Source: Mobula hypostoma | Lineage: Eukaryota | Assembly: GCF_963921235.1 (NCBI RefSeq) | Contig: NC_086097.1 | Coordinates: 104,596,001-104,660,000 of the forward strand | Direction of reading: 5' to 3' | Length of the DNA stretch: 64,000 bases | Shown here: positions 25,846 to 62,870 of the stretch, in pieces | How positions within the stretch are numbered: position 1 is the first letter of the stretch | Layout of the letters: each line of letters begins with the position of its first letter | Position numbers and translations under genes: made by a program | The notes under the pieces: generated by a model | The model's input: only the letters and a program-made list of their open reading frames with translations | What the model was told of the DNA's origin: nothing | The model's database searches: none

Positions 25846-26102
25846 CTATGTGTTTGAACCTGTTTGATCACTGCAGCTCTTGAAGATACAAAAAGTTGTT
25901 TTCTCAGAGCATACAGTGTATTGACATTTAAAGAGGTATACCTTTTCAATTTTACTCAAAAGTACTAACTGCAAACCTGATGCAAACATCTTAACTAAAC
26001 TTCCCACATGATTCTGAGATGTCTGAAAGTGGATTGATGCCACTGCAGCTCCTCAAGATAAAAAAGTTGTTTTCTCAGTGCATACAGTGAATTGACATAA
26101 AA
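25846..26102. repeat. Transitional/hybrid satellite monomers
   Basis: Mix of young-type (GATGTCTGAAAGTGG, CCACTGCAG) and old-type (CCTGTTTGATCACT, CTCCTCAAGATAAAAAAG) segments. Confidence 0.85.
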
Positions 26103-33200: not shown

Positions 33201-36200
33201 GAGCTGATGAAAATAAAACAGCTGTTTTCTCAGTGCATACAGTGTATTGACATTAAAAGAAGTATACCTTTCAATCTGGCACAAAGGTACAGACTGCAAA
33301 TCTGATGGAAACATCTTAACTTAACTCCCCATATGATTCTGAGTAGCTTGAGACCTGTTTGATCACTGAGCTCCTCAAGATAAAAAACTTGATTTCTCAG
33401 GGCATTCAGTAGATTTACATTAAAAGAAGTATATCTTTCTAATTTACTCAAAATGACTGAATGCAAATCTGATGGAAACACGTTAACTTAACTCCCCATA
33501 TGATTTTGAGTTCTTTGAGACCTGATTGATGACTGAGCTCCTCAAGATAAAAAAGTTGTTTTCTCAGTGCATACAGTACATTGACATCAAAAGAAGTATA
33601 CTTTTCAATGTTACTCAAAAGTACTGAATACAAAGCTGATGGAAACACCTTAATGTAACTCCCCTTATGATTCTGAGTTGTTTGAGACCTGTTTAATCAC
33701 TGAGCTCTTCAAGATAAAATAGTTGTTTTCTCAGTGCATACAGTATATTGACATTACAGGAAGTATACCTTTAAATTTTACTCAAATGTATTGACTGCAA
33801 AGCTGATGGAAATATCTTAATGTAACTCCCCTTATGATTCTGAGTTGTTTGAGACCTGTTTGATCACTGAGCTCTTCAAGAATAAAAAAGTTGTTCTTTC
33901 AGTACATACAGAGCTTTGACATTAAAAGAAGTATACCTTTAAATTTTACTCAAAAGTATTGTCTGCAAAGCTGATGGAAATATCTTAAGCTAACTCCCCA
34001 TATGATTCTGAATTGTTTGAGACCTGTTTTATGACGGAGCTCATCAAGATAAAAAAAAGTTGTTTTCTCACTGCATGCAGTGCATTGACATCAAAAGAGG
34101 TACAGCTTTGAATTTTACAGAAAAGCACTAACTGCAAAGCTGATGGAAACACTTTAACGTAACTCCCCATATGATGATGAGTTGTTTGAGACCTGTTTCA
34201 TCACTGAGGTCTTCAAGATAAAAAAGTTCTTTTCTCAGTGCATACAGTGCATTGACATTCAAAGTGGTATACCTTTCAATTTTACTCAGATGCACTGACT
34301 GCAAACCTGATGGAAACATCTTAACTTAACTCCCCATATGATCCTGAGTTGTTTGAGACCTGTTTAATCACTGAGTTCTTCAAGATAAAATAGTTGTTTT
34401 CTCAGTGCATACAGTATATTGACATTACAGGAAGTATACCTTTAAATTTTACTCAAATGTATTGACTGCAAAGCTGATGGAAATATCTTAATGTAACTCC
34501 CCTTATGATTCTGAGTTGTTTGAGACCTGTTTGATCACTGAGCTGTTCAAAAATAAAAAAGTTGTTCTTTCAGTACATACAGAGCTTTGACATTAAAAGA
34601 AGTATACCTTTCAATTTTACTCAAAAGCATTGTCTGCAAAGCTGATGGAAATATCTTAAGCTAACTCCCCATATGATTCCGAATTGTTTGAGACCTGTTT
34701 TATGACGGAGCTCATCGAGATAAAAAAAGTTGTTTTCTCACTGCATGCTCTTGACATCAAAAGAGGTACAGCTTTGAATTTTACACAAAAGTACTAACTG
34801 CAAAGCTGATGGAAACACTTTAACGTAACTCCCCATATGATGATGAGTTGTTTGAGACCTGTTTCATCACTGAGGTCTTCAAGATAAAGAAGTTCTTTTC
34901 TCAGTGCATACAGTGCATTGACATTCAAAGTGGTATACCTTTCAATTTTACTCAAAAGTACTGACAGCAAGGCTGATGGAAACCCCTTAGCTTAACTCCC
35001 CACATGATTCTGAGTTGTTTGAGACCAGTTTGATCACAGATCTCTTCAAGATAAAAAAGTTGTTTTGTCAGTGCATACAGTGTATTGACATTAAAAGAGG
35101 TATACCTTTGAATTCTACTCAAAGGTACTAACTGCAAACCTGATGCAAACAACTTAACTTAACTCTCCATATGATTCTGAGCTGTTAGAGACCTGATTGA
35201 TCACTGAGCGCCTCGATAAAAAAGTTGTTTTCTCAGTGCAAACAGTGTATTGACATCAAAAGAAGTATACCTTTCAATTTTTCTCAAAAGTACAGACTGC
35301 AAAGCTGATGGAAACACCTTAACTTTGCTCCCCATATGATTCTGAGTTGTTTGAGACCTGTTTGATCACAGAGTTCTTCAAGATAAAAAAGTTGTTTTCT
35401 CAGTGCATACAGTGTACTGACATTAAAAGAATTATACCTTTCAATTTTACTCAAAGGTACTGACGGCAAACATGATGGAAACATCTTAAGGTAAATTCCC
35501 ACATGATTCTGAGTTGTTTGAGACCTGTTTGATCACACAGCTCTTCAAGATAAAAAATGTTGTTTTCTCTGTGCATATAGTGTTCTGACATTAAAATAGG
35601 TATACCTTTCAATTTTACTTAAAAGTACTGACTGGAAAGCTGATGTTAACATCTTAACTTAACTGTCCATATGATTCTGAGTTGTTTGAGATGTGTTTTC
35701 CCACTGAACTCTTTAAGATAAAAAAAAAAATTGTTTCTCAGGGCATACAGTGTGTTGACATTAAAAGAAGTATCCCCTTAAATTTTACTCAAATGTACTG
35801 ACTGCAAAGCTGCTGGAAACATTTTAACCTAACTGTCCATAGCATTCTGAGATTCATGAGACCTGTTTGAACACTGAGCTCTTCAAGATAAAAAAGTTGT
35901 TTTCTCAGTAGATACAGTGCATTGACATTCAAAGAAGTATACTTTTCAATTTTTCTCAAAAGTACAGACTGCAAAGCTGATGGAAACACCTTAACTTTGC
36001 TCCCCATATGATTCTGAGTTGTTTGAGAGCTGTTATATCACGGAGCTCATCAAGGTTAAAAATTTGATTTCTCAGTGCATACATTGGATTGACATTAATA
36101 AAATTATTCCTTTCAATTTTACTCAGAAGTACAGACTGCAAAGCTGATGGAAACACCTTAACGTAACTCCCCATATGATTCTGAGTTGTTTGAGACCTGT

Positions 36201-39200
36201 TTGATCACTGAGCTTTTCAAGATAAAAAACTTGTTTTCTCACTGCATACAGTGCATTGACATTTAAGGAGGTATACCTTTCAATTTTACTCAAAAGTATT
36301 GACTGCAAGGCTGATGGAAACAGCTTAACAACTCCCCATATGATTTTGTGATTTATGAGACACTGAGCTCTTCAAGATAAAAAAGTTGATTTTTCAGTAC
36401 ATACAGTGTATTAACATTACAGGAAGTATATTTAAATTTTACTCAAATGTACTGACTGCAAAGCTGATGGAAACATCTTAACCTAACTGCCGATATGATT
36501 CTGTGTGGTTTGAGACCTGTTTGATCACTGAACTCTTCAAAATAAAAAAGTTGTTTTCGCAGTACATGCATGGGTTTGACATTAAAAGAAGTATACCTTT
36601 CAATTTTACTCAAAAGTATTGACTGCAAAGCTGATGGAAACACCTTAACTTAACTCCCCATATGATTCTGCAGTGTTTGAGACCTGCTTTATGACTGACC
36701 TCCTCAAGATAAAAAATCATGTTTTCTCAGTGCATACAGTGCATTGACATTTAAAGAGATATCCCTTTCAATTTCACTCAAAGTAATGACTGCAAGGCTG
36801 ATGGATACATCTTAACTTAACTCCTCATATGATTATCAGATTTATGAGACCTCTTTGAAGACTGAGCTCTTCAAGATAAAAAAGTTGTTTTCTCAGTGCA
36901 TACAGTGTACTGACATTAAAAGAATTATACCTTTCAATTTTACTCAAAGGTACTGACGGCAAACATGATGGAAACATCTTAAGGTAAATTCCCACATGAT
37001 TCTGAGTTGTTTGAGACCTGTTTGATCACTCAGATCTTCAAGATAAAAAATGTTGTTTTCTCTGTGCATATAGTGTTCTGACATTAAAATAGGTATACCA
37101 TTCAAGTTTACTTAAAAGTACTGACTGGAAAGCTGATGTTAACATCTTAACTTAACTGTCCATATGATTCTGAGTTGTTTGAGACGTGTTTTCCCACTGA
37201 GCTCTTTAAGATAAAAAAGTTGTTTCTCAGTGCATACAGTGTGTTGACATTAAAAGAAGTATCCCTTTAAATTTTACTCAAATGAACTGACTGCAAAGCT
37301 GATGGAAACATTTTAACCTAACTGTCCATATCATTCTGAGATTCATGAGACCTGTTTGAACATTGAGCTCTTCAAGATAAAAAAGTTGTTTTCTCAGTAG
37401 ATACAGTGCATTGACATTCAAAGAAGTATACCTTTCAATTTTTCTCAAAAGTACAGACTGCAAAGTTGATGGAAACACCTTAACGTAACTCCCCATATAA
37501 TTCTGAGTTGTTTGAGACCTGTTTGATCACTGAGCTCTTGAAGATAAAAAATCATGTTTTCTCAGTGCATACAGTGCATTGACATTTAAAGAGATATCCC
37601 TTTCAATTACACTCAAAGTAATGTCTGCAAGGCTGATGGAAACATCTTAACTTAACTCCTCATATGATTTTCAGATTTATGAGACCTCTTTGAAGACTGA
37701 TCTCTTCAAGATGAAGAAGTTGTTTTCTCAGTGCATACAGTCCATTGACATTTAAGGAGGTATACCTTTCAATTTTACTCAAAAGTATTGACTGCAAGGC
37801 TGATGGAAACAGCTTAACAACTCCCCATATGATTTTGAGATTTATGAGACACTGAGCTCTTCAAGATAAAAAAGTTGTTTCCTCAGTACATACAGTGTAT
37901 TGACATTACAGGAAGTATACCTTTAAATTTTATTCAAATGTACTGACTGCAAAGCTGATGGAAACATCTTAACCTATTTGCCGATATGATTCTGTGTGGT
38001 TTGAGACCTGTTTGATCACTGAACTCTTCAAAGTAAAAAAGTTGTTTTCGCAGTACATGCATGGGTTTGACATTAAAAGAAGTATACCTTTCATTTTACT
38101 CAAAAGTATTGACTGCAAAGCTGATGGAAATATCTTAACTTAACTCCCCATTTGATTCTGAGTAGTTTGAGACCTGTTTTATGACGGAGCTCATTGATAA
38201 AAAAAGTTCTTTTCTCACTGCATACAGTGCATCGACATCAAAAGAGGTACAGCTTTGAATTTTACACAAAAGAACTGACTGCAAAGCTGAGGGAAACACC
38301 TTACCGTAACTCCCCATATGATTCTGAGTAGTTTGAGACCTCTTTGATCACTGAGCTTTTCAAGATAAAAAAGTTGTTTTCTCAGTACAGACAGTGTATT
38401 GACATTCAAAGAAGTATACCTTTCAATTTTACTCAAAGGTACTGACTGCAAAGCTGATGGAAACACCTTAACTTAACTCCCCATATGATTCTGAAGTGTT
38501 TGAGACCTGCTTTATGGCTGACCTCCTCAAGATAAAAAATCATGTTTTCTCAGTGCATACAGTGCATTGACATTTAAAGAGATATCCCTTTCAATTTCAC
38601 TCAAAGTAATGACTGCAAGGCTGATGGAAACATCTTAACTTAACTCCTCATATGATTATCAGATTTATGAGACCTCTTTGAAGACTGAGCTCTTCAAGAT
38701 AAACAAGTTGTTTTCTCAGTGCATACAGTGTACTGACATTAAAAGAATTATACCTTTCAATTTTACTCAAAGGTACTGACGGCAAACATGATGGAAACAT
38801 CTTAAGGTAAATTCCCACATGATTCTGAGTTGTTTGAGACCTGTTTGATCACTCAGCTCTTCAAGATAAAAAATGTTGTTTTCTCTGTGCATATAGTGTT
38901 CTGACATTAAAATAGGTATACCATTCAAGTTTACTTAAAAGTACTGACTGGAAAGCTGCTGTTAACATCTTAACTTAACTGTCCATATGATTCTGAGTTG
39001 TTTGAGACGTGTTTTCCCACTGAGCTCTTTAAGATAAAAAAGTTGTTTCTCAGTGCATACAGTGTGTTGACATTAAAAGAAGTATCCCCTTAAATTTTAC
39101 TCAAATGTACTGACTGCAAAGCTGATGGAAACATTTTAACCTAACTGTCCATATCATTCTGAGATTCATGAGACCTGTCTGAACACTGAGCTCTTCAAGA

Positions 39201-42200
39201 TAAAAAAGTTGTTTTCTCAGTACATACAGTGTATTAACATTACAGGAAGTATACCTTTAAATTTTACTCAAATGTACTGACTGCAAAGCTGATGGAAACA
39301 TCTTAACCTAACTGCCGATATGATTCTGAGTTGTTTGAGACCTGTTTGATCACTGAACTCTTCAAAACAAAAAAGTTGTTTTCGCAGTACATGCATGGGT
39401 TTGACATTAAAAGGATTATACCTTTCAATTTTACTCAAAAGTATTGACTGCAACGCTGATGGAAATATCTTAACTTAACTCCCCATTTGATTCTGAGTTG
39501 TTTGAGACCTGTATTATGACGGAGCTCATAGATAAAAAAGTTCTTTTCTCACTGCATACAGTGCATTGACATCAAAAGAGGTACAGCTTTGAATTTTACA
39601 CAAAAGAACTGACTGCAAAGCTGAGGGAAACACCTTACCGTAACTCCCTGTATGATTCTGAGTAGTTTGAGACCTCTTTGATTACTGAGCTCTTGAAGAT
39701 AAAAAAGTTGTTTACTCAGTACAGACAGTGTATTGACATTCAAAGAAGTATACCTTTCAATTTCACCCAAAGGTACTGACTGCAAAGCTGATGGAAACAT
39801 CTTAACTTAACTCCCCATATGATTCTGAAGTGTTTGAGACCTGCTTTATGACTGACCTCCTCAAGATAAAAAATCATGTTTTCTCAGTGCATACAGTGCA
39901 TTGACATTTAAAGAGATATCCCTTTCAATTTCACTCAAAGTAATGACTGCAAGGCTGATGGAAACATCTTAACTTAACTCCTCATATGATTTTCAGATTT
40001 ATGAGACCTCTTTGAAGACTGAGCTCTTCAAGATGAAAAAGTTGTTTTCTCAGTACATACAGTGCTTTGACATTCAATGAACTATACCTTTCAATTTTAC
40101 TTAAAAGTACTGACTGCAAGGCTGATGGAAACCCCTTAACTTAACTCCCCACATGATTCTGAGTTGTTTGAGACCTGTTTGATCACTGAGCTCTTCAAGA
40201 TAAAAAAAAGTTGTTTTATCAGTGCCTACAGTGCATTGACATCAAAAGAAGTATATCTTTCAATTTTACTCAAAAGTACTGACTGCAAAACTGATGGAGA
40301 CACCTTAACTTAACGGCCCACATAATTCTAAGTGGTTTGAGACCTGTTTGATCACAGAGTTCTTCAAGATAAAAAAGTTGTTTTCTCAGTGCATACAGTG
40401 TACTGACATTAAAAGAATTATACCTTTCAATTTTACTCAAAGGTACTGACGGCAAACATGATGGAAACATCTTAAGGTAAATTCCCACATGATTCTGAGT
40501 TGTTTGAGACCTGTTTGATCACACAGCTCTTCAAGATAAAAAATGTTGTTTTCTCTGTGCATATAGTGTTCTGACATTAAAATAGGTATACATTTCAATT
40601 TTACTTAAAAGTACTGACTGGAAAGCTGATGTTAACATCTTAACTTAACTGTCCATATGATTCTGAGTTGTTTGAGATGTGTTTTCCCACTGAACTCTTT
40701 AAGATAAAAAAAAAAGTTGTTTCTCAGGGCATACAGTGTGTTGACATTAAAAGAAGTATCCCCTTAAATTTTACTCAAATGTACTGACTGCAAAGCTGCT
40801 GGAAACATTTTAACCTAACTGTCCATAGCATTCTGAGATTCATGAGACCTGTTTGAACACTGAGCTCTTCAAGATAAAAAAGTTGTTTTCTCAGTAGATA
40901 CAGTGCATTGACATTCAAAGAAGTATACTTTTCAATTTTTCTCAAAAGTACAGACTGCAAAGCTGATGGAAACACCTTAACTTTGCTCCCCATATGATTC
41001 TGAGTTGTTTGAGAGCTGTTATATCACGGAGCTCATCAAGGTTAAAAAGTTGATTTCTCAGTGCATACATTGGATTGACATTAATAAAATTATTCCTTTC
41101 AATTTTACTCAGAAGTACAGACTGCAAAGTTGATGGAAACACCTTAACGTAACTCCCCATATGATTCTGAGTTGTTTGAGACCTGTTTGATCACTGAGCT
41201 CTTGAAGATAAAAAAGTTGTTTTCTCCATACAGACAGTGTATTGACATTCAAAGAAGTATACCTTTCAATTTCACCCAAAGGTACTGACAGCAAACCTGA
41301 TGGAAACATGTTAACTTAACTCCCCATATGATTATCAGTTGTTTGAGACATGTTTGATCACTGAGCTCTTCAAGATAAAAAATGTTGTTTTCTCTGTGCA
41401 TATAGTGTTCTGACATTAAAATAGGTAACCTTTCAATTTTACTTAAAAGTACTGACTGGAAAGCTGATGTTAACATCTTAACTTAACTGTCCATATGATT
41501 CTGAGTTGTTTGAGACGTGTTTTCCCACTGAGCTCTTTAAGATAAAAAAGTTGTTTCTCAGTGCATACAGTGTATTGACATTAAAAGAAGTATCCCTTTA
41601 AATTTTACTCAAACGTACTGACTGCAAAGCTGATGGAAACATCTTAACCTAACTGCCCATATGATTCTGAGATTGATGAGACCTGTTTGAATACTGAGCT
41701 CTTCAAGATAAAAAAGTTGTTTTCTCAGTAGATACAGTGCATTGACATTCAAAGAAGCATACCTTTCATTTTTTCTCAAAAGTACTGACTGCAAAGCTGA
41801 TGGAAACACCTTAACTTTGCTCCCCATATGGTTCTGAGTTGTTTGAGAGCTGTTATATCACGGAGCTCATCAAGGTTAAAAAGTTGATTTCTCAGTGCAT
41901 ACATTGGATTGACATTAATAAAATTATTCCTTTCAATTTTACTCAGAAGTACAGACTGCGAAGCTGATGGAAACACCTTAACGTAACTCCCCATATGATT
42001 CTGAGTTGTTTGAGACCTGTTTGATCACTGAGCTTTTCAAGATAAAAAACTTGTTTTCTCAGTGCATACAGTGCATTGACATTTAAGGAGGTATACCTTT
42101 CAATTTTACTCAAAGGTACTGACTGCAAAGCTGATGGAAACACCTTAACTTAACTCCCCATATGATTCTGAAGTGTTTGAGACCTGCTTTATGATTGACC

Positions 42201-42241
42201 TCCTCAAGATAAAAAAATCATGTTTTCTCAGTGCATACCGT
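27245..42241. repeat. Diverged (older) ~167-bp satellite array, ~90 monomers, same family and orientation as the young array
   Basis: Shares AAAAAGTTGTTTTCTCAGTGCATAC, TTTCAATTTTAC, TGGAAACA and ATGATTCTGAG with the young unit. Many substitutions and indels between monomers. Confidence 0.96.
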
Positions 42242-43101
42242 TGTGACGAGAATACACATAAAATTAAGATGTTTGCTTGCCTGGGTTAGCATCAGTGACA
42301 TCAGCAAGTGGTCTGCCACCTGCCCTCAGGGGAAGGAGAGATAAGGAACAATGGAGCAGCGTCTGGAGATGTGTAATGAAGGGACGGGGGAGAGAGAGCT
42401 GTCTGGAGCGGCTCCCCCTTTGAACCCTGAACTGTTTGAAGTGATGGACAGGCGATACCCCAGCAGGGGGATAAAAAGGGATAGGTTCGCTAAGGCAACA
42501 CACACGCCACCCGAGGTAACGAGACTCTGGAAGCGGTACGCCTCTCACGAGTCGGTGGAAAGTACCAGACAACGGCCAGGGTGGAAAGGTACGATCAGCA
42601 GGAACCCGGTGTGTGTCCACCCTTGCCTGGGTGCCGGGTTCACTGCAGAGGATCGACCGCATCTGGAAGAGGGGTCACAGTCGGTGACCTCAGGTGACAT
42701 CACAAAGGACCTGCCCAAAAGCTGCTTGTGAGCCATATCGCCGGTCTGTGAGTGAAGCCGTGTCTGAATGATCAGTTGTTCCTGTTCTCTCTCTCTCTCC
42801 CCCCACGTTGTCCATCGCCATGGCAACGATTACTGCGAACTGAACTATTAAACTGGACTGAACTTTGAGTCACTTTGAAATTTGGTCATTTACCCCTAGA
42901 CAACGATAGAGCTTGATTGATGCTGTTATCTTAATTCTGTGCACATGTGTGTTTATCATCGCTGAACTGTTGCATTTATTATCCTTTCGATTACTGTGTT
43001 GCTTGTTTCTTTCATAAAACTTTCTTAGTTCTAGTAATCCAGACTCCAACTGAGTGATCCATTTCTGCTGGTTTGGCAACCCAGTTACGGGGGACGTAAC
43101 A
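42242..43101 (+). repeat. 5' LTR
   Basis: TGTGACG...CGTAACA; about 8 mismatches by eye versus the 3' LTR. Confidence 0.96.
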
Positions 43102-43105
43102 TAAG

Positions 43106-43124
43106 TGGGGTTCTCGTCCGGGAT
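43106..43124 (+). promoter_or_regulatory. Primer-binding site, tRNA-Pro type
   Basis: TGGGGTTCTCGTCCGGGAT versus the canonical tRNA-Pro PBS TGGGGGCTCGTCCGGGAT, 4 nt after the LTR. Confidence 0.85.
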
Positions 43125-43200
43125 TTTGAACGCTAAATTTGGGACGGAGTAAATTGATTGGGTTAAAATTCCCGAAAGAAAGAAAAGACAAACAGCAGAA

Positions 43201-43623
43201 ATGGAGGCTGAGGAATTTATAAAGGCGCCGACCTTGGAGGCATTAGAGGATGCCAGGAAATCGGAATTGATAGCTGTGGCCAAACGGTTGAATCTTGCTA
43301 AGGTGAAGTCGACAATGAGGACAGAGGAGATACACAGAGCTATTGTAGAGCACTATGTATCTAAAGGTGTGTTTCCCCAAGGTGAGCTGGGGGTAGTGTC
43401 TATTGAAAAACCTGCTGGAGACGCGGTACAGGTACAGCTTGAAAAACTGAGACTCGAGCACGAGTTCTGGGTACGGCAGTTAGAACACGAAGAGAAGCAG
43501 TTAGAAAGGCAAGAGAGAGAGAAAGAGGTAGAAAGGCAAGAGAGAGAAAGACAGTTGGAGAGAGAAGAGAGAGAGGGACAGACAGTTGGAGAGAGAGGAG
43601 AAACAGAGGGAAAGGGAATTTAA
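43201..43623 (+). CDS. Gag N-terminal part, frameshifted from the downstream ORF inside a GA-rich coiled-coil repeat
   Basis: ATG ~80 nt after the PBS; E/R/K-rich tract; overlaps the next ORF in a different frame. Confidence 0.75.
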   Translation: MEAEEFIKAPTLEALEDARKSELIAVAKRLNLAKVKSTMRTEEIHRAIVEHYVSKGVFPQGELGVVSIEKPAGDAVQVQLEKLRLEHEFWVRQLEHEEKQLERQEREKEVERQERERQLEREEREGQTVGERGETEGKGI

Positions 43624-46048
43624 GCTGGAGAAGATAAAGATAAGGGCCGAGCAGGGGCTCATGCCGAACCAAGGTAGAGGGTTCCGGGCGACCCAGGAGG
43701 TTAGGCTGGTTCCCCCATTTGACGATACCGACGTGGATCGGTACTTTCTCCACTTCGAAAAAGTGGCTATAAGTCAGGACTGGCCGAGGGATAAGTGGGT
43801 TGTCTTACTTCAGAGTGTACTGAAAGGGAAAGCCCAAGAAGCTTACTCCGCTTTGTCCGCGGAAGATGCCCAGAGGTATGAGGTGGTGAAAGAGGCCATC
43901 CTCAGGATTTGTGAGTTGGTCCCGGAGGCATACCGGCAGAGGTTACGGAATGCGAGGAAACAGTGGGACCGCACGTATTTGGAGTTTGCCCGTGAGATGC
44001 AGACATATTGTGAGCGTTGGTGCGCCTCGAAGGGGGTAGAGGGGGATTATGACAGACTGCTACAACTGATCCTGATTGAGCAGTTTAAAGGTTGTGTCCC
44101 TGAGGGTATGAGACCCTACCTCGATGAGAAAGAGGCAGCCACGTTAGCCGCAACTGCTAAGTTAGCGGATGAGTATGCGTTGACGCATAAAATGAAGTTT
44201 GCCCCGAGTAAAGGCTACCAGAAGGGTAGTCAGGACGGCGGGGAGAGTCCGCCGGAAAAGTCAGAAAGTAAGCCGGGGACTAGTGAAAAGGATAAGGTAG
44301 ACCGGGAGCAGTCTGGTAGGAAGTCTCCTGGGGTCGTCTGTTATAATTGTGGGAAAGCCAGACACTTTGCGTCCAGGTGCTTTGCCCCAAGGAAGGAGAC
44401 GGGGAAAGGAAAAGCGGAAATTTTGAATGGCTGTATCGAGCTGTTAAGCGAACCGCTAGGGAAGGACAGGTCTGAAAAAGTCCAGGAAGGGCGCGAGAGG
44501 TTTATCTCGGCCGGGTTGGTGTCAGTGAAGGAGGGGTTAAAACCAGTTCCAGTGCGGATCTGGAGAGACACGGGAGCGTGTCAGTCACTAATACTGAAGA
44601 GTGTATTAGAGTTTAGCTCAGAGACCCAGACTGGGGAGGTAGAGGTCAAAGGTGTTGGGGAAGGGACAGAGTCAGTCCCTTTGCACCAGATACACTTACA
44701 AAGCAACCTGGTCTCTGGACTAGTCACGATCGGGGTGAGGTCCGAATTACCGATGAAACACGTGGAAGTCTTGCTCGGTAATGACATCGCCGGAGGAATC
44801 GTGTTCCCAGTCGTGAGATTGACAGGTCAGCCTGCCAGCATTGAGGCCCCGCCCATGGACTCACAGGTTCATCACGGGCCCGCGATAGTGAATTTAGCTG
44901 AAACGTTTCTGCCAACCTTGTATGAGATGGGGTGTAGTGAGACAAGAGGTAGTGAGGGAGCTGGGACGGACGTAGCAGTAGCCAGGAAAGAATTTGTGCA
45001 GACGCAGGAGCGAGACGAGGGGCTGATGGTTTTGGCAGAGACAGCTCTCTCTGACACAGCTTTAACAAGGGAACAAGTAGGCTATTGTGTGGAGGAGGAA
45101 GTGCTAAGGAAAAAAGGGAAATCAAGTACAGTACCCGCAGATGAGGAATGGGGGGTGGTGCAAAAGAGTTATGGGGATGAGGTTTTTAACATGGCCCACG
45201 AGGTACCCCCCGGTGGACATTTTGCGATGCTGGAGGAAACAGTTGGTGGAATCATGAAAGAGATTTACTGGCTGCCCAGGGGAAAGAATGTTATTGATCA
45301 TGACCGACGCGAACTGAGACGGTCACCGGCTTTTGATATACTAACAAACCTAGTCGGTGTTAGCGTGGAAATGACTAGTATGGGATCGATCAGATGGGAG
45401 AAGGCTATTGTTTTGGCCAGGTCTACTGATAAGGTGTCTCCCTTAATTCCCGAACAAAGCGAATCTTTAGAAGAAGTAATTAAACGACTCGCACCCGTGT
45501 GTTTGATTGTCCCGAGGCAATGCAAAGAACTGGGACGTTGGGTGATGTCTGTTACAATAGGTCAGCCTAGTAAACAACAATCATATATAATGAGTAATTC
45601 AGTGACTAAAGGGCTGATGAACACAGAGGTGTGTATTGGCAATTTAATATGGCTGTCTGAAGCCAGCTTGATAGTGAACCTTGAAAAAAATGAATTCGGC
45701 CACACGAGGGTCACTTACCTGGGAATTGTGGTGACACAGGGGCAGCTGGCAGCGATGCAAGCTACAGTGCAGGCTATCGCTGACCTCCCAACCCCGACAG
45801 ACAAGAGGGCCCTCAGAAGGCTCTTGGAGATGGTGGGGTACTGCAGGAAGTTTTGCAATAACTCTGCGGTCAATATCCGTCCCCCTCCTACTAAGCCCTT
45901 GCGAGAGAAAACTGAGTCGGAATGGGACGACCCTTGTTATTGTGGTCCGGGACAAAACCAAATGAGAGGTTACATTGGTCGCAATTCATCAGTGTTTTTC
46001 GCCACTATGAAGTTTGCTGAGTTGGAGCCTGGTCTAAGGGATTATTAA
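43586..46048 (+). CDS. Gag (SCAN-like capsid C-terminus, CCHC knuckle), protease, integrase-Zn remnant and RT-thumb remnant
   Basis: ELVPEAYRQR...LLQLILIEQF (SCAN-like), CYNCGKARHFASRC, RDTGACQS, AHEVPPGGH, then VNLEKNEFG..VTYLG..LRRLLEMVGYCRKF. No YxDD, RNase H or DDE core seen. Confidence 0.85.
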   Translation: MEREEKQREREFKLEKIKIRAEQGLMPNQGRGFRATQEVRLVPPFDDTDVDRYFLHFEKVAISQDWPRDKWVVLLQSVLKGKAQEAYSALSAEDAQRYEVVKEAILRICELVPEAYRQRLRNARKQWDRTYLEFAREMQTYCERWCASKGVEGDYDRLLQLILIEQFKGCVPEGMRPYLDEKEAATLAATAKLADEYALTHKMKFAPSKGYQKGSQDGGESPPEKSESKPGTSEKDKVDREQSGRKSPGVVCYNCGKARHFASRCFAPRKETGKGKAEILNGCIELLSEPLGKDRSEKVQEGRERFISAGLVSVKEGLKPVPVRIWRDTGACQSLILKSVLEFSSETQTGEVEVKGVGEGTESVPLHQIHLQSNLVSGLVTIGVRSELPMKHVEVLLGNDIAGGIVFPVVRLTGQPASIEAPPMDSQVHHGPAIVNLAETFLPTLYEMGCSETRGSEGAGTDVAVARKEFVQTQERDEGLMVLAETALSDTALTREQVGYCVEEEVLRKKGKSSTVPADEEWGVVQKSYGDEVFNMAHEVPPGGHFAMLEETVGGIMKEIYWLPRGKNVIDHDRRELRRSPAFDILTNLVGVSVEMTSMGSIRWEKAIVLARSTDKVSPLIPEQSESLEEVIKRLAPVCLIVPRQCKELGRWVMSVTIGQPSKQQSYIMSNSVTKGLMNTEVCIGNLIWLSEASLIVNLEKNEFGHTRVTYLGIVVTQGQLAAMQATVQAIADLPTPTDKRALRRLLEMVGYCRKFCNNSAVNIRPPPTKPLREKTESEWDDPCYCGPGQNQMRGYIGRNSSVFFATMKFAELEPGLRDY

Positions 46049-46209
46049 TAACACGTGTAAAAGGAACAGAAAATGCGATGACTGTCTGTCAAGGTGATGA
46101 CAACTTCAAACTCGCTGTGTTAGCCAAATAGCTGATAAAGATGTATATTTGTGCGTGTATCAAATCATGTATTCATGTTTGTAATTTTTACCTCCCGGTA
46201 AAAATCCTT

Positions 46210-46221
46210 AAAGGGGGGAAG
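46210..46221 (+). promoter_or_regulatory. Polypurine tract
   Basis: AAAGGGGGGAAG directly before the 3' LTR. Confidence 0.85.
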
Positions 46222-47081
46222 TGTGACGAGAATACACATAAAATTAAGATGTTTGCTGGCCTGGGTTAGCATCAGTGACATCAGCAAGTGGTCTGCCACC
46301 TGCCCTCAGGGGAAGGAGAGATAAGGAACAATGGAGCAGCGTCTGGAGATGTGTAATGAAGGGACGGGGGAGAGAGAGCTGTCTGGAGCGGCTCCCCCTT
46401 TGAACCCTGAACTGTTTGAAGTGATGGACAGGCGATACCCCAGCAGGGGGATAAAAAGGGATAGGTTCGCTAAGGCAACACACACGCCACCCGAGGTAAC
46501 GAGACCCTGGAAGCGGTACGCCTCTCACGAGTCGGTGGAAAGTACCAGACAACGGCCAGGGTGGAAAGGTACGATCAGCAGGAACCCGGTGTGTGTCCGC
46601 CCTTGCCTGGGTGCCGGGTTCACTGCAGAGGATCGACCGCATCTGGAGGAGGGGTCACAGTCGGTGACCTCAGGTGACATCACAAAGGACCTGCCCAAAA
46701 GCTGCTTGTGAGCCATATCGCCGGTCTGTGAGTGAAGCCGTGTCTGAATGATCAGTTGTTCCTGTTCTCTCTCTCTCTCCCCCCACGTGGTCCATCGCCA
46801 TGGCAACGATTACTGCGAACTGAACTACTAAACTGGACTGAACTTTGAGTCACTTTGAAATTTGGTCATTTACCCCTAGACAACGATAGAGCTTGATTGA
46901 TGCTGTTATCTTAATTCTGTGCACATGTGTGTTTATCATCGCTGAACTGTTGCATTTATTATCCTTTCGATTACTGTGTTGCTTGTTTCTTTCATAAAAC
47001 TTTCTTAGTTCTAGTAATCCAGACTCCAACTGAGTGATCCATTTCTGCTGGTTTGGCAACGCAGTTACGGGGTACGTAACA
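46222..47081 (+). repeat. 3' LTR
   Basis: Direct repeat of 42242-43101. Confidence 0.96.
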
Positions 47082-48855
47082 CAGTGCATTGACATTTAAA
47101 GAGACATCCCTTTCAATTTCACTCAAAGTAATGACTGCAAGGCTGATGGAAACATCTTAACTTAACTCCTCATATGATTTTCAGATTTATGAGACCTCTT
47201 TGAAGACTGAGCTCTTCAAGATGAAAAGGTTGTTTTCTCAGTACATACAGTGCATTGACATTCAATGAACTATACCTTTCAATTTTACTCAAAAGTACTG
47301 ACTGCAAGGCTGATGGAAACCCCTTAACTTAACTCCCCACATGATTCTGAGTTGTTTGAGACCTGTTTGATCACTGAGCTCTTCAAGATAAAAAAAAGTT
47401 GTTTTATCAGTGCCTACAGTGCATTGACATCAAAAGAAGTATATCTTTCAATTTTACTCAAAAATACTGACTGCAAAACTGATGGAGACCCCTTAATTTA
47501 ACGCCCCACATGATTCTGAGTTGTTTGAGACCTGTTTGATCACAGAGCTCTTCAAGATAAAAAAGTTGTTTTCTCAGTGCATACAGTGTACTGACATTAA
47601 AAGAATTATACCTTTCAATTTTACTCAAAGGTACTGACGGTAAACATGATGGAAACATCTTAAGGTAAATTCCCACATGATTCTGAGTTGTTTGAGACCT
47701 GTTTGATCACACAGCTCTTCAAGATAAAAAATGTTGTTTTCTCTGTGCATATAGTGTTCTGACATTAAAATAGGTATACCTTTCAATTTTACTTAAAAGT
47801 ACTGACTGGAAAGCTGATGTTAACATCTTAACTTAACTGTCCATATGATTCTGAGTTGTTTGAGACGTGTTTTCCCACTGAGCTCTTTAAGATAAAAAAG
47901 TTGTTTCTCAGTGCATACAGTGTGTTGACATTAAAAGAAGTATCCCCTTAAATTTTACTCAAATGTACTGACTGCAAAGCTGATGGAAACATTTTAACCT
48001 AACTGTCCATATCATTCTGAGATTCATGAGACCTGTTTGAACACTGAGCTCTTCAAGATAAAAAAGTTGTTTTCTCAGTAGATACGGTGCATTGACATTC
48101 AAAGAAGTATACCTTTCAATTTTACTCAAAAGTACTGACTGCAAAATTGATGGAAACCCCTTAATTTAACGCCCCACATGATTCTGAGTTGTTTGAGACC
48201 TGTTTGATCACAGAACTCTTCAAGATAAAAAAGTTGTTTTCTCAGTGCATACAGTGCATTGACATTAAAAGAAGTATACACATCAATTTTACTCAAAAGT
48301 ACTGACTGGAAATCTGATGGAAACATCTTAACTTAATTCCCCATATGATTCTGAGTTGTTTGAGACCAGCTTTATCACGGAGCTCCTCAAGATAAAACAC
48401 TTGTTTTCTCAGCGCATACAGTGCATTGACATTTAAAGAGATATCCCTTTCAATTTCATTTAAAGTAATGACTGCAAGGCTGATGGGAACATCTTAACTT
48501 AACTCCTCATATGATTTTCAGATTTATGAGACCTCTTTGAAGACTGAGCTCTTCAAGATGAAAAAGTTGTTTTCTCAGTACATATAGTGTTCTGACATTA
48601 AAATAGGTGTACCTTTCAATTTTCCTTAAAAGTACTGACTGGAAAGCTGATGGTAACATCTTAACTTAACTGTCCATATGATTCTGAGTTGTTTGAGACG
48701 TGTTTTCCCACTGAGCTCTTTAAGATAAAAAAGTTGTTTCTCGGTGCATACAGTGTATTGACATTAAAAGAAGTATCCCTTTAAATTTTACTCAAACGTA
48801 CTGACTGCAAAGCTGATGGAAACATCTTAACCTAACTGCCCATATGATTCTGAGA
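47082..48855. repeat. Terminal ~10.5 diverged satellite monomers
   Basis: Resumes in register after the TSD and ends at CATATGATTCTGAGA. Confidence 0.95.
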
Positions 48856-49047
48856 CTTTTTCTGTTAGAGATTGCTATACTCAAATCATTTGTCTTTTCT
48901 CCCCTGTAAAATATTTACAAAAGATCGTTATCCATCTGTGATTTGACTGAGTGTGTTGCTCTAGCGTAAAAGTTCTGGGCATGTCCTACTGCCTACCAGG
49001 AGCACACAGTATTTCCACAGAGACCTCCTGATCACTGTGATGCTGAA
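48850..49047 (-). pseudogene. Remnant of the ZNF-cassette 5' module (intron, putative splice acceptor, exon start) lacking a finger array
   Basis: 48850-48924 aligns to 62797-62872. 48934-49047 aligns patchily to ~63079-63200 after a ~200-bp gap. Minus-strand TTTTACAG with AG at 48905-48904. Confidence 0.75.
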
Positions 49048-50594
49048 TGATTGACGGTGGTGAACTCAGCAATGACAATACCAATGAATGTGAAGAGTAG
49101 GTGATTGGACGTTCTTGTAAAGGGTGAAACTCTCGTAGTGTGACTGCTACAGGACTCCTGTTACTCAAGACAGAGGCGTTCGTGATTATACACGCAAACT
49201 GAATAAAAGAAACAATGGTCTCACAAAGGTAATCTGCTATAGAAGCAGTTTATGTATCTTGCGGGGCTCTAATTGACATTTTAATTCATTGGGATTTGGA
49301 CCTAGTTCTTTCTTTTTGGCCTTAGCCAAAGCTATTCCCATTAGCTACCGAAGTCTGAACTTCCGCTAGTTCTGGACATCGGACCTAATTTCAGTGTTTC
49401 ACCTCAAATGGTAGAAACTCGCTTATCCACTTGTCTGATGGATACATTATAATTTCTCACGTGAGACAAACTTAGAACTGTACTTTTCGGCTGAGTCCCA
49501 AATCCTTAGCTTTAGAGCGAAAGATCTCAGCTATGCCTTGGAGGTCTAGCAGACCAATTTCTGGAGCCCTTTCTCCACTGAACACATGCGCGCCATTCGG
49601 CACAATTTTGGACTCTTGGCACCCATGCACTCGATTCTCATGATAATATATTCCAAAACTCAGATATTCCTGAGTAAGAACAGTGCCATTGAAAGCATTT
49701 ACAAGCATTGCCACACTTCTGCCAAATGCCACCATTCCAGACAATATTTCTATTCGATTTCAGATGCCAGATTAATACAGCAAGCTTCCATGTCAACAGT
49801 CAAAGTAAACTATTTTTTTCTGTCAAAAAACCTCCAAACACTGCTACTCTGTCATTGCCACGCCCCCTGCTGTTTCTCTGTTCATCATATGCTTTTACCC
49901 TTACCACTGCCAAGAGGCCGACACTTTGTCCTGTGCTGACCTGTCTCTGGTTTCTGACCCTGCTTAAATGAACACCCAACTTAACGTTCCAAGTTCTGCT
50001 TACAGATTTTAGAGAACGTGGTGTATTCTAATAACCCTATTGTTTGAGCCAGCTCTTTGCAAGAGGTGAAAGTGACCTATAATGTTGAAGTGGACAGGGA
50101 ATAAGGTAGTTAACTAATATTGTCATTCTTCCTCGGCCCAGAGAGATTTGAGGGAAAGAGAACATGTCAGACATAATTGCAGCCAGACTTCAGTCTACAG
50201 AAAGTCATGCAGGAAATTCAAGGAAAACCTTTCACTCGGAGGTTTGGAACCCATCACCACAGCAAGAGTGAGAGGTGAACATCGGAGTTGGATTTAAAAG
50301 AACTGCCGTGCAACAGAAATAATGGCAGGGACCTCCTAGGCTTTTGACTCCCTAATATACACTGGATGTGTTGCAGATTCACCAAGTACATGAGACTGAG
50401 CTTAAAATGGAACTGATTTATTTGTCACCAATTCAGAATATTAAACTACAGTCCAATTAAATATGAATATCAGCAGAAGAAACTGCGCAGTAACTGGGGT
50501 GCAAAACTGGATTGGATGAGCAACGGCAGTAATTATTCGACATCAAGAGTAACTTTTGAACTTGTCTCTGGATTCAGCAACTATTCTGAGTCTG

Positions 50595-51439: not shown

Positions 51440-52835
51440 AAGCATATTTAAACCAGTGTGAACTCAGTGTGCCACGTTTAGAATCGGTGTATATTCCTTC
51501 CAACAGTCTGTGCAGGTGAACGGCCTCTCCCCACTGTGAATCGACTAGTGTGCCAGTAGGACGATTGACTATGTGAATTCGTTCCCACAATCTGGGCAGG
51601 TGAAAGGACTCTCTCCATCGTGAACTCATTGATGCCGCATCGGTTAAGATTTCCTCATTCTTAGCAGATGAACGGCCTTTCCGCATTGTGAAGTCACTGG
51701 TATACCAAGAAGGTAGGTGATTGAGTGAATCCCTTCAGACAAACGGAACAGGAGTACGGATTCTCCCATGCAGCAGGTGGGATGACACATTCAAAGTAGG
51801 TTAATGGTTTCTCCCTAGTGAACTCCCTGGTGTACCTTCAGTTTGTACGATGCAGCGAATCCCTTCCCTCAGTGTGAACAGGTATATGGCCTGATTCCAG
51901 TGTGAACTGACTGGTGTGTCTGTAGCTCAGATAGTTGAATGAATCCGTTCCCACAGTCAGAGCAGGTGACCACCCTGACTACCATGTGAACTCGCTGGTC
52001 TGCCTACAGGTGAGATGTCTGAGTGAATGCCATCACACAGTGTGAGCATTTGAATGGTCTGTCCTCATTGTGAACAGGCTAGTTTGCCAATAGGTCAGAT
52101 GACCAAGTGAATCCCTCCCCAGAGTCTGAGCGGGTCTCTCAACAGTGTGAACTCTGGTGTAGCAGTAGTTCAAATGAGTGAGTGAATTCCAGTGTGAATT
52201 CGCTGGTCTGCCTGCATGTGAGATGATCGTGTGAATCCCTTTCCACAGTCCAGACAGGTGAACGACCTCCCAGCCGTGAAATCTCGCGGATGTGTCAACA
52301 GATCAAGCTACTGAGTGAATCTCTTCCCACATACAGAACAATTGAACAGTCTATATCCCTTGTCAAGTCACTGGGGTGTCTGTGGATCGGCTGAGTGAGT
52401 GAATCTTTTCCAATAGCAAGTGATCAGCCTCTCACTGCTGTGAATTTTCTGATGTAGCGTCAGCCTGGATAGCAGAATGAATCGTTTCCTACAGACAGAC
52501 AGATCAACAAATGCTGGTGTGTTCTCTGCACCCCGGTTCCAGTGGATTGCACTGAGATACATCTTCCTCTCATCAGCGTTGACAGATAAATTGGTGTTAC
52601 AAAGGAAATATCTGGTCACTCCGTAAATATCTGGATAGAGATATTAGTGCTGAGGTGCTATTGTGTTTGAGATTCCTGCCCACTATTTCTTTCCCATTTC
52701 CAACTTGTTAAAAGATTTACCAACTACATCAATAGGTGAAGGACAACATTTCAGATGAGATAATTTCAGCTTATATTGTGAATTCCGACATCACAATATT
52801 ACAGCAAGGTTCAACCCAAGTTGGAGGAACAACCT
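51440..52835 (-). pseudogene. Degenerate C2H2 ZNF pseudogene with 5' module; putative acceptor mutated AG>AA
   Basis: ~84-bp spaced CAGTGTGAA/TTCCCACA motifs with stops and indels. 52590-52825 aligns to ~62735-62970. Confidence 0.85.
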
Positions 52836-54424: not shown

Positions 54425-55500
54425 GCAGAACTGGATGTAATGATTGAGTGAATCCTTTCCCACATTGGGAGCAGGTGAACAGCCTCTCCCCAGTGTGATT
54501 TCGCTGATGTACCGTCAGTTGAGCTGACTGAGTGAATCTATTCCCACAGTCTGAGCAGGTGAACGGCTTGTCCTAAGTGTGAGTGAGCTCTGCCGCGTTA
54601 GCAGTTCAGATGACCGAGTGAACTCTCTGGTGTTTCTATCCATCGGCTGAGTGAGTCAATCTCTTCCAACACATGGAGCAAGTGAAGACCTCTCACTGCT
54701 GTAAATTTGCTGTTGTATCATCAGCTTGGATGACAGAATGAATCGCTTCCTGCAGGTATCACAGGTTAATCATTTCACTATGGGATGAACTTGCTGATGT
54801 ATGTTCACACTGGATGACTGAATAGATCCTTTGCCACACACAGAGCAGGTGAGTGGCCTCTTCTCATTGATGTGTCTGCAAGTCAGATGAATGAGAGAAA
54901 CCCTCCCCACGATGGGGAAAGGACAATGATATCTCCATTATCAGTTCTCTGGCAATTCATCAAGTCACATGCCAAACATAGTGAACCCCTTGCTCAGTCA
55001 ATGTCATTGAAGTACTAACCTCAGTAAAAAAAAAATACCGGTTTGTTCTCATCAACCCACTCCCAGTATATTTCATTGATTGAAGAGAGGAAACCTCATT
55101 TCAGATGCAAGACATGTTTCCAGCTGGGATGAGATATTTCTTCATCTCTAAGGGTCAACACCAGAAATAAGGGTGTTACAAAGAAAACACTTGGTCACTC
55201 AAACATCTGGACAGAGACAGCAAATCTGACGTGCAGCTGTGCTTGAGGGTCATGTACACAAATGCTTTGTCATTACTAACCTAGAAAAAGATTTTCAAAA
55301 GACATCAAAGGGTGAAGGACGGTATTTCAGATTAGATAATTTTAGTTTATGTACACTACACCGGTACAACAAGGTCCAACAGAAGCAGAAGAAACTCCTG
55401 GATGGGACAGATCATCTAGATCTGCCTGTATCAGAATGGACCATTTCTGCCCGCCTTCAGTCTGTGATGTGACTCAATTTGTCTCTCTCCATTTGTAATA
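54425..55500 (-). pseudogene. Degenerate C2H2 ZNF pseudogene with 5' module (putative acceptor at 55282-55281)
   Basis: Finger remnants at 54425-54920, paralogous to 52380-52510. 55095-55500 aligns to ~62665-63120. Confidence 0.85.
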
Positions 55501-59934: not shown

Positions 59935-60121
59935 GTACCTTCAGATTAGATAACTGAATGATTCCCTTCCCGCATACTGAACAGGTGAAAGGCCACACGC
60001 CAGTGTGAACTCGATGGTGTGTCTGTAGGGAAGATAATGGAGTGAAACCCTTCCCACAGTCTAAACAGGTAAGCTCCCTCTACCCAGTGCAAGCTCACTG
60101 GTGTGTCTGTAGGGAATTTAA

Positions 60122-62398
60122 TTATTTGAAATCCTTCCCACAGTCCAAACAGGTGAACTCCCTCTCCCCAGTGTGAACTCGCAAATGTGTCTGTAGGGAA
60201 GATAATTGAGTGAATCCCTTCCCACAATCCAAACAAGTGAACGGTCTCTCCCCAGTGTGAACTCGCTGGTGTGTCTGTAGGGAAGATAATTGAGTGAATC
60301 CCTTCCCACAGTCTGAACAAGTGAACGGCCTCTCCCCAGTGTGAATTCGCTGGTGTGTCTGCAGGGAAGATAATTGAGTGAATCCCTTTCTACACACTGA
60401 ACAGCTGAATGGCCTCTCCCCGGTGTGAACTCGCTGGTGTGTTTGCAGGGAAGATAACTGAGTGAATCCCTTTCCACACACTGAACAAGTGAATGGCCTC
60501 TCCCCGGTGTGAACTCGCTGGTGCGTCTGTAGGGAAGATAACTGAGTGAATCCCTTTCCACACACTGAACAGCAGAATGGCCTCACCCCAGTGTGAATTC
60601 GTCGGTGTGCCTCTAGGGAAGATGACTGAGTGAATCCCTTCCCACAGTCTGAACAGATGAATGGCCTCTCCCCAGTATGGACACGATGGTGTACCAATAG
60701 GGCAGATGATTGACTGAATCCCTTCCCACACACGGAACAGGTGAATGGCCTCTCCCCAGTCTGAACTCGCCGATGTCCCTGTAGGTGTCGTGATCGACTG
60801 AATCCTTTCTCACACACTGAACTTGTGAATAGCCTCTCCCTAGTGTGAACTCGCTGATGTCCCTGTAGGGAAGATAACTGAGTGAATCCCTTCCCACACA
60901 CTGAACAGTTGAATGGTCTCTCTCCAGTGTGAACTCGTTGGTGTGCCTGTAGGGAAGATAACTGAGTGAATCCCTTCCCACAGTCTGAACAGGTGAATGG
61001 CCTCTCTCCAGTGTGAACACGCTGATGTGCCTTGAGAGAAGATAATTGACTGAATCCCTTCCCACAGTCTGAACAGGTGAACGGCCTCTCCCCAGTGTGA
61101 ACTCGCTGGTGGACCAATACAGCAGATGATCGAGTGAACCCCTTCCCACACACTGAGCAGATGAATGGCCTCTCCTCAGTGTGAACTCGTTGGTGTCCCT
61201 GCAGGTGATGTGATCGGCAAAATCTCTTCTCACGCACTGAACTGGTGAATGGCCTCTCCCCAGTGTGAACTCGCTGATGTGTTTGTAAAGAAGATAATTG
61301 AGTGAATCTCTTTCCACAGTCTGAACAATGGAACGGCTTCTCCCCAGTGTGAACTCGCCAGTGTGTCTGTAGGGAAGATAATTGAGTGAATGTCTTTTGA
61401 CAGACTGAACAACTGAAGGGCCTCACACCAGTGTGAATTCGTCGGTGTGCCTCAAGGGAAGATGACTGAGTGAATCCCTTCCCACAGTCTGAACATGTGA
61501 ACGGCCTCTCCCCAGTATGGACACGATGGTGTACCAATAGGGCAGATGATTGACTGAATCCCTTCCCACACACAGAACAGGTGAATGGCCTCTCCCCAGT
61601 CTGAACTCGCTGATGACTCTGTAGGTGACAAGATGGACTGAATTCTTTCTCACACACTGAACTGGTGAACAGCCTCTCCCCAGTGTGAACTCGCTGGTGT
61701 GCCTGTAGGGAAGATGACTGAGTGAATCCCTTCCCACAGTCCGAACAGGTGAATGGCCTCTCCCCAGTGTGAATTCTCTGCTGTGCCAGTAGGGCAGATG
61801 AATGACTGTACCCTTTCCCACACACTGAGCAGGTGAATTGCCTCTCCCCACTGTGAACCCGGTGCTGTCCCTGTAGGTGACAAGATCGACTGAATCCCTT
61901 CACACAAACTGAACTGATGAACAGCCTCTCCCCAGTGTGAACTCGCTGGTGTGTCTGCAGGGAAGATAATTGAGTGAATCCCGTTCCACACACTGAACAA
62001 GTGAATGGCCTCTCCCCAGTGTGAACTCGCTGGTGTGCCTGCAGGGAGGATAACTGAGTGAATCCCTTTGCACACACTGAACAGGTGAATGGCCTCTCCC
62101 CAGTATGAACTCGCTGGTGTACCAGTAGGGCAGATGATCGATTGAACCTCTTCCCACAGTCTGAGCAGATGAACATCTCCCCAGTGTGAAATGACAGGTA
62201 TGCTAATAGATCCGATGACAAAGTCAATCCTTTCCTACAGTCTGAACAGTTGAACAGCCTCTCACCAGTGTGAACACACTCATATCTAGGCAGGTCAGAT
62301 AACCAAGGGAATCTCTTTCCACACACGGAATCATTGAAGACTCTGTTCCTTGTGAACTCACTGATGTGAATTTTCTGACGTACCGTCAGTGTGGGCAA
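60122..62398 (-). CDS. Tandem C2H2 zinc-finger protein: 24 complete finger units after Met75 (about 19 canonical); no effector domain in the window
   Basis: 758-codon open frame of CxxC-x12-HxxxH units with TGERP linkers. The track start is TTG, the first ATG is at 62176, and there is an in-frame TGA upstream at 62410-62408. Degenerate fingers flank both sides. Confidence 0.85.
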   Translation of the reverse strand: MPTLTVRQKIHISEFTRNRVFNDSVCGKRFPWLSDLPRYECVHTGERLFNCSDCRKGLTLSSDLLAYLSFHTGEMFICSDCGKRFNRSSALLVHQRVHTGERPFTCSVCAKGFTQLSSLQAHQRVHTGERPFTCSVCGTGFTQLSSLQTHQRVHTGERLFISSVCVKGFSRSCHLQGQHRVHSGERQFTCSVCGKGYSHSSALLAQQRIHTGERPFTCSDCGKGFTQSSSLQAHQRVHTGERLFTSSVCEKEFSPSCHLQSHQRVQTGERPFTCSVCGKGFSQSSALLVHHRVHTGERPFTCSDCGKGFTQSSSLEAHRRIHTGVRPFSCSVCQKTFTQLSSLQTHWRVHTGEKPFHCSDCGKRFTQLSSLQTHQRVHTGERPFTSSVREKRFCRSHHLQGHQRVHTEERPFICSVCGKGFTRSSAVLVHQRVHTGERPFTCSDCGKGFSQLSSLKAHQRVHTGERPFTCSDCGKGFTQLSSLQAHQRVHTGERPFNCSVCGKGFTQLSSLQGHQRVHTRERLFTSSVCEKGFSRSRHLQGHRRVQTGERPFTCSVCGKGFSQSSALLVHHRVHTGERPFICSDCGKGFTQSSSLEAHRRIHTGVRPFCCSVCGKGFTQLSSLQTHQRVHTGERPFTCSVCGKGFTQLSSLQTHQRVHTGERPFSCSVCRKGFTQLSSLQTHQRIHTGERPFTCSDCGKGFTQLSSLQTHQRVHTGERPFTCLDCGKGFTQLSSLQTHLRVHTGEREFTCLDCGKDFK

Positions 62399-62851
62399 CA
62401 GACTAAATCACTTCATTCAGACAGAACCGGTGGAGCATCTCACTGTGGTGTGAACTTGCTGATGTATCTTCATGCTGAGTCACTGAGTAGATCCTGTCCC
62501 ACACACAGAACAGGTGATTGGCGTCTTCACTCTGTAAACTCACAGGTGTTTCTGTGGCTTGCTGAGTGAGAGAATCTCACACTGAGAAAGTCCCTTGGCA
62601 TCAAATACCGGTGTGTTCTCAGCACCTCATTTCCAGCAGACTTCAGAGTTACTACATAAAACTTCACTTCAGACACAAAGCATTTTTCCAGCTGGGATGA
62701 GATACTTCTTCATCTCCTAAGATCAACAATGGATATATTGGTGTTACAATGGAAATAGCTGGTCACTCCTCAAATATCTGGACAAAGACAGCAAACCTGA
62801 AATTCTGTTCTGTATGAGATTCCTGCACACAAATTCTTTGTCATTTCCAAC

Positions 62852-62870
62852 CTGTAAAAAGATTTACAAA
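62852..62870 (-). promoter_or_regulatory. Putative splice acceptor of the ZNF exon
   Basis: Minus strand TTTGTAAATCTTTTTACAG|GTTGG. The site is conserved in position in four paralogous modules. Confidence 0.55.

Follow-up and report, generated by a model that had tools for sequence, protein, structure and literature searches.

A likely centromeric satellite array adjoins the truncated finger exon of a decayed C2H2 zinc-finger gene copy

RESULTS

Satellite array and inserted elements

The window (the whole stretch of 64,000 nucleotides analyzed here, G000:C1:104596001-104660000) is located inside a 256-Mb contig (C1) of a 3.48-Gb genome. A 167-bp satellite with an AT-rich monomer occupies, together with inserted elements, positions 1-48855, and zinc-finger (ZNF) gene units follow to its right. 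The features of the window are summarized in Table 1.

TABLE 1 Satellite blocks, inserted elements and ZNF units of the window (positions are counted from its first letter)
Feature	Position	Strand	Observations
Homogeneous satellite core	1..26086	+	TRF 156 copies, 96%; core-core identity 97%
LINE 3' piece with reverse transcriptase, inserted in array	26100..27245	-	ORF 26199-27263 (minus), Pfam RVT_1 E 1.7e-14
Diverged satellite flank	27243..42241	+	TRF 82%; flank-flank identity 84%, about 73% to core
LTR retrotransposon inserted in array	42242..47081	+	LTRs 42242-43101 and 46222-47081; SCAN-domain ORF, Pfam SCAN E 7.6e-12
Terminal satellite block	47082..48855	+	10.6 monomers; 94% duplicate of 39894-41672, which lies about 14 monomers back; ends mid-monomer
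Junction	48854..48855	.	Two letters fit both sides; spanned by X1 contig 48811-49397
ZNF finger exon stub, 48 bases	48856..48903	-	Aligns with paralog exon starts
Putative splice acceptor	48904..48926	-	AG at 48905-48904 with pyrimidine tract; assigned by the gene structure of the family
Intron relic	48927..49563	-	Collinear with paralogs of other ZNF clusters, 65-75%
Decayed family promoter/exon 1 relic	49564..49617	-	nhmmer E 2e-05 (profile of 10 intact copies) and alignment; exon-1 donor absent
Broken ZNF unit	51493..52705	-	Homologous AG reads AA; 11-16 stops per frame
Broken ZNF unit	54440..55282	-	AG kept; 12-17 stops per frame
Intact ZNF finger exon	59945..62853	-	Acceptor AG 62853-62852

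The satellite core extends 24 kb further to the left, where it reaches a 200-N assembly gap at G000:C1:104571738. The LINE piece inserted in the array is presumably of the CR1 type, and a short inverted satellite piece lies within the diverged flank (27555-27700); larger satellite inversions were seen in a second array of the same contig (105824722-105830462) and on C36 (84042962). The two LTRs of the retrotransposon differ at 8 of 860 bases (0.9%; 99.1% identical) and the element is flanked by CCGT and CAGT. From its sequence we regard this element as young. Its 3' LTR faces the terminal satellite block (47082-48855) on the plus strand and might give rise to opposite-strand satellite RNA. Within the terminal block, the last monomer shares 99.4% identity with the one ending at 41670 and tracks it through 48855, and several other terminal monomers are 96-100% identical to internal ones.

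The satellite family was found on at least 11 contigs among the 150 of 314 matches listed. The layout is of the centromeric type, with a homogeneous core, a diverged flank and a family present on many chromosomes, and from this layout the 167-bp satellite is likely to be centromeric. The second array on C1 is reversed, is located 1.2 Mb to the right and likewise starts at a gap. Two 200-N gaps (G000:C1:104571738-104571938 and 105818720-105818920) flank a 1.25-Mb stretch, which begins in the satellite core (plus strand) and may contain further gaps, and the stretch after the second gap begins in the same satellite (minus strand), which decays until 105892571. If the 1.25-Mb stretch had been scaffolded upside down, both C1 arrays would represent the two sides of one centromere. 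As a check of this idea we searched the second gap for the 49-bp repeat that precedes the first one, and it did not recur there. This 49-bp satellite (at least 525 copies, G000:C1:104546003-104571738) adjoins the first gap, and a 39-bp satellite (356 copies, G000:C1:105805032-105818720) adjoins the second.

When contig depth was summed over window positions 48690-48920, we obtained a value of 188 for organism D versus 64762 for organism A and 55967 for organism B, and a SINE bin was similar. These values, which are a hint and not a copy number, suggest that, with a flank only 5.7% away, organism D nevertheless has little 167-bp satellite at 85% identity.

ZNF gene family and neighboring units

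A CpG-rich block located 31.8 kb upstream of the acceptor at 62853 recurs across ZNF clusters. For the promoter search we used the CpG part of this block, since a 1101-base query drew mostly LINE matches. A donor-like CAG|GTA was present in 10/10 promoter copies, which had themselves been picked by their match to the CpG-rich block. On C22, the promoter block is located 1.35 kb upstream of the module (the acceptor together with the exon start of this ZNF family), and a 581-aa finger frame follows. This recurrence of promoter block and donor upstream of module and finger frame suggests a family gene model, in which a promoter/exon 1 is followed by an intron, an acceptor and one long finger exon. 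The copy of the block at G000:C1:104690450-104690985 (L024:450-985) is CpG-rich and carries a conserved donor as well as repeated CGCATGCG motifs, which we take to be NRF1-like.

Among the units at 52.7, 55.3 and 62.85 kb, only the 62.85-kb gene is open. Its frame (62407-60122) comprises 761 aa from stop to stop and 684 aa from the first Met, and it involves 19 Pfam C2H2 stretches; no KRAB match was obtained for this frame. Just upstream of the 52.7-kb module, a short finger array (52835-53266) runs on the plus strand, against the orientation of the cluster.

Junction between satellite and ZNF exon stub

The satellite ends at 48853 (..ATTCTGA). The subsequent GA (48854-48855) is compatible with both a sister monomer and the module, and the module letters start directly thereafter without any spacer, so that the overlap of the two sides is 2 letters. 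The preliminary description had reported this spacerless transition with its sequence and coordinates, and we can confirm it, as well as the position and strand of the AG. When positions 48855-48925 were aligned with the 62.85-kb module, 55/71 letters were identical (local score 58) and 0/1000 dinucleotide shuffles scored as high, which agrees with the earlier estimate of roughly three quarters identity in the same orientation. For the 55.3-kb module, 49/71 letters were identical (local score 37) and again 0/1000 dinucleotide shuffles scored as high. The resemblance to the 52.7-kb module (46/71, local score 20, 120/1000 shuffles as high) is not significant alone. That the module belongs to ZNF genes and is not a dispersed repeat holds as well, since it contains the acceptor and the exon start of the ZNF family and its paralogs lie beside finger arrays.

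Misassembly had been named as a possible source of the join. Here, we found that a 587-base contig of the DNA run X1 crosses the junction (48811-49397) with 0 differences and places 44 letters in the satellite. X1 may be the assembly's own sample, so that this contig counters an assembly error but makes no statement on the population. The junction is genuine. When metagenome contigs were scanned with a 24-base module pattern, 0 matches were obtained. We also considered a long microhomology as crossover, since 10 letters of some monomers match the module when shifted by 7 bases. This candidate was rejected because the intervening module letters are kept and only 2 letters overlap.

Truncated gene copy and its pseudogene lineage

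In the window copy, about 200 intron bases immediately upstream of the acceptor are deleted, including a block conserved in full-length copies. The AG is retained, as are the pyrimidine tract and, about 25 bases upstream, a TAAC. The promoter relic keeps 7 CpG, and its observed/expected CpG ratio of 0.51 (rank 11 of 50 local bins) compares with 0.77-1.07 in intact promoters. Paralogs of 48855-50600, collinear and 65-75% identical, were found in the ZNF clusters of C2, C18, C22, C40, C41, C45, C63, C64, C80 and others. Because the promoter relic was found upstream on the same strand (49617-49564, minus), we read the region from 49.6 to 48.86 kb as the 5' end of a complete ZNF gene copy (promoter relic, intron, acceptor), which is cut 48 bases into its finger exon. 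As a functional ZNF gene, the junction unit lacks both an exon-1 donor and an open finger array, its finger exon being a 48-base stub. The intron deletion, the decayed promoter/exon 1 and the broken state of the 52.7- and 55.3-kb units go beyond the preliminary description.

In a phylogenetic tree, the window copy grouped with three C45 copies in a 100/99 clade and its end branch was ordinary (0.14). This tree kept 14/19 rows, with 5 rows under 400 bases excluded, and its bootstrap is rough. The intron deletion before the acceptor is common to four C45 copies, which are the four closest copies of the window unit, and all 4/4 have lost the AG. We then inspected the 25 best of 40 non-self paralogs for a frame with at least 2 fingers within 3 kb downstream of the module and found it in 0/25, and the 62.85-kb module, which served as control, gave 19 fingers. 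Finger traces were kept in 13/25 of these closest paralogs according to tblastn. The module was kept in 18/25, with a clear AG in 8, a lost AG in 9 and an unclear one in 1. The exon-1 donor is absent from the window relic and from 8/9 alignable sister relics (15 were tried) but present in 10/10 intact promoters. Several paralogs are cut near the same place by SINE or LINE insertions. Since the donor is gone, about 200 intron bases are deleted, the sister AGs are lost and 0/25 paralogs carry a frame with at least 2 fingers, the copy appears to belong to an old pseudogene lineage. It was probably dead before the junction formed, and the earlier notion that a live ZNF exon was lost here could not be sustained, as the lineage is fingerless or nearly so in the 25/25 paralogs checked.

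Junction region in related organisms

A 987-base contig of organism B aligned with 48861-49709 with 14 differences in 849 bases (1.6%) and 0 gaps, leaving 138 letters over. These letters were assigned to the junction side on the basis of the record coordinates and of the common end region, at 49699-49709, of the contigs from three runs, and they were not placed as continuing satellite. The side was read from a table with 8 pieces listed per run, and the letters could be satellite in another register. From the contig coordinates, organism B is likely to be without this join. The join is probably recent, because a relative only 1.6% away appears to be without it. For organism D, an 866-base contig covers 48896-49699 with 46 differences, 1 gap and 63 letters left over. 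This contig shows the same intron deletion and ends short of the junction.

Other array ends and search for the exon remainder

The preliminary description had proposed a check of other ends of this satellite, and modules or fingers were found within 1-4 kb at 0/12 other array ends. This comparison employed module cores only (SINE/LINE flanks were dropped), and several of these ends may be insertions rather than true ends. The remainder of the exon was not found elsewhere in the searches made, and at its far end the array runs into an assembly gap. A 30-kb stretch across the right end of the second C1 array gave no match to module or fingers. When paralog exon continuations were used as queries, there was no C1 match among the 40 and 42 matches listed. 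Apart from one 21-base match, satellite was absent from four candidate cut copies and from the further ZNF loci retrieved. Comparison of the monomer with the ZNF exon, the module and the fingers yielded a best match of 15 bases, and 3, 165, 200 and 97 of 200 shuffles reached the four scores.

RNA candidates at the junction

The run X9, which we guess to be RNA, provided no contig cover in 48690-48920 or 49383-49613. One exact 181-base contig was located at 50507-50687 (depth 3.2), but it may be DNA, and the X9 contigs bear on expression neither for nor against. No contig joint at 48903 was present among the 15 of 1222 joints listed.

DISCUSSION

In our view, the junction probably goes back to a single recent event, a deletion or rearrangement with repair by end joining, which cut likely centromeric satellite on one side and, on the other, the exon start of a ZNF copy, probably dead by then. 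The copy would have died long ago, in the common ancestor of the pseudogene lineage shared with C45, and the join would have come later, probably after the split from organism B. The material lost would comprise a decayed, nearly fingerless exon and some monomers, and end joining at the 2-letter overlap would have repaired the single event. Both sides look cut because the terminal block stops 10.6 monomers into an about 14-monomer unit, mid-monomer, and because the ZNF exon is a stub. This is the simplest account, and its main rival is that copying driven by recombination (through unequal exchange, or through break-induced replication with template switch) moved the array edge across the pseudogene and overwrote the exon, with satellite expansion as the driving force. 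Local copying in the flank was indeed recent, as judged from the last monomer (99.4% to the one at 41670), the other terminal monomers (96-100%) and the 94% multi-monomer duplicate, and the LTR pair, 0.9% apart, suggests that the edge was active on the time scale of the 1.6% distance to organism B. However, the overlap at the join is only 2 letters, and the 6%-diverged duplicate predates the distance between organisms A and B, so that the terminal block is probably older than the join. We rate such an advance as unlikely; both processes have the same outcome, and ancestral sequence would be needed to tell them apart. The preliminary description had offered two readings, replacement of a ZNF member by the array or growth inside one. 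The satellite does stand where the rest of the exon stood, but insertion or growth inside the exon, with the exon rest at the far end of the array, is very improbable even though there is no spacer at the join and the far end is a gap. Because the monomer is unrelated to exon, module and fingers, the array did not grow from the exon. In addition, the satellite is present on at least 11 contigs, and neither the 30 kb at the second C1 array, nor the two exon-continuation searches, nor the candidate cut copies and other ZNF loci (apart from the one 21-base match) provided the missing counterpart.

Deletion with end joining would leave the AG without an upstream partner, and the locus is then predicted to yield no spliced satellite RNA. 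The alternative is that minus-strand transcripts enter the satellite. They could start at the promoter relic, at a distance of 0.7 kb, and run through unspliced, or the intact ZNF exon 1 at G000:C1:104690694 could be spliced onto the AG at 48905-48904. The window copy has retained its AG and pyrimidine tract, although the AG is lost in four sister copies, the relic faces the array and retains some CpG, and both AATAAA and ATTAAA are absent from the minus strand between 48903 and 47001. On the other hand, the unit has lost the donor of its exon 1, and in a search from window position 42001 to 60 kb beyond the window, the closest intact donor of the family was located 45.8 kb from the AG. An intact finger exon and another AG-bearing module lie in between, as do six AATAAA on the minus strand between 59950 and 48905. 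Moreover, the conserved intron block before the acceptor is deleted, the CpG ratio of the relic is below that of intact promoters and an ATTAAA is present at 49285, between relic and junction. With the own donor gone and the nearest intact one so far off behind an intact gene, splicing from a ZNF promoter into the satellite seems unlikely, and unspliced read-through from the relic would be the more plausible route, if any. Overall, we regard minus-strand transcription into the array as quite doubtful. We give similarly little credit to the idea that a centromere edge was caught in the act here, in which the array, after the split from the 1.6% relative, came to lie 0.7 kb downstream from a half-decayed ZNF promoter facing it, with the first 1.9 kb of satellite free of poly(A) hexamers, and a new species-specific and strand-specific source of centromeric satellite RNA would thereby have been created. 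If it were true, the sister species would offer the ancestral state for comparison with this source. The case is likely an ordinary pericentromeric truncation of a pseudogene and not a new source of spliced satellite RNA.

Eichler et al. are said to have described in 1998 beta-satellite blocks in the human 19p12 ZNF cluster, which recur through the cluster together with the genes. As there, satellite is located here directly beside a member of a duplicated C2H2-ZNF cluster. Unlike 19p12, only 1 of the 13 array ends examined adjoins a ZNF unit and the other ZNF loci fetched are without satellite. Human alpha-satellite centromeres are described as layered, with homogeneous arrays and older, more variable monomeric flanks containing LINEs and SINEs (PMC8125562). 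The array described here resembles this arrangement in its AT-rich monomer of similar size (167 vs. 171), its 97% core and 84% flank, its transposon insertions and the presence of the family on many chromosomes. It differs in that its sequence is unrelated, that the genome is that of a cartilaginous fish and that its centromeric role is inferred from layout. In the main text of a ray-genome preprint, a centromere is located by Hi-C and methylation and the word satellite is absent (10.1101/2025.06.08.657570). Our literature searches gave no report of a satellite-ZNF exon junction in sharks or rays; bioRxiv supplements could contain satellite annotation.

At this locus, the truncation of an adjoining pseudogene by a satellite edge is dated and resolved to the base, in a group with barely described centromeres. 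Live and dead ZNF copies might be told apart with the help of the promoter/exon 1 block, which is found at ZNF clusters across the genome. The junction itself uniquely marks where a probable centromere has its edge, and it permits comparison with a sister species. Should strand-specific RNA be driven into the array by what is left of the promoter or acceptor, a source of centromeric transcripts would be testable at a single uniquely mappable locus.
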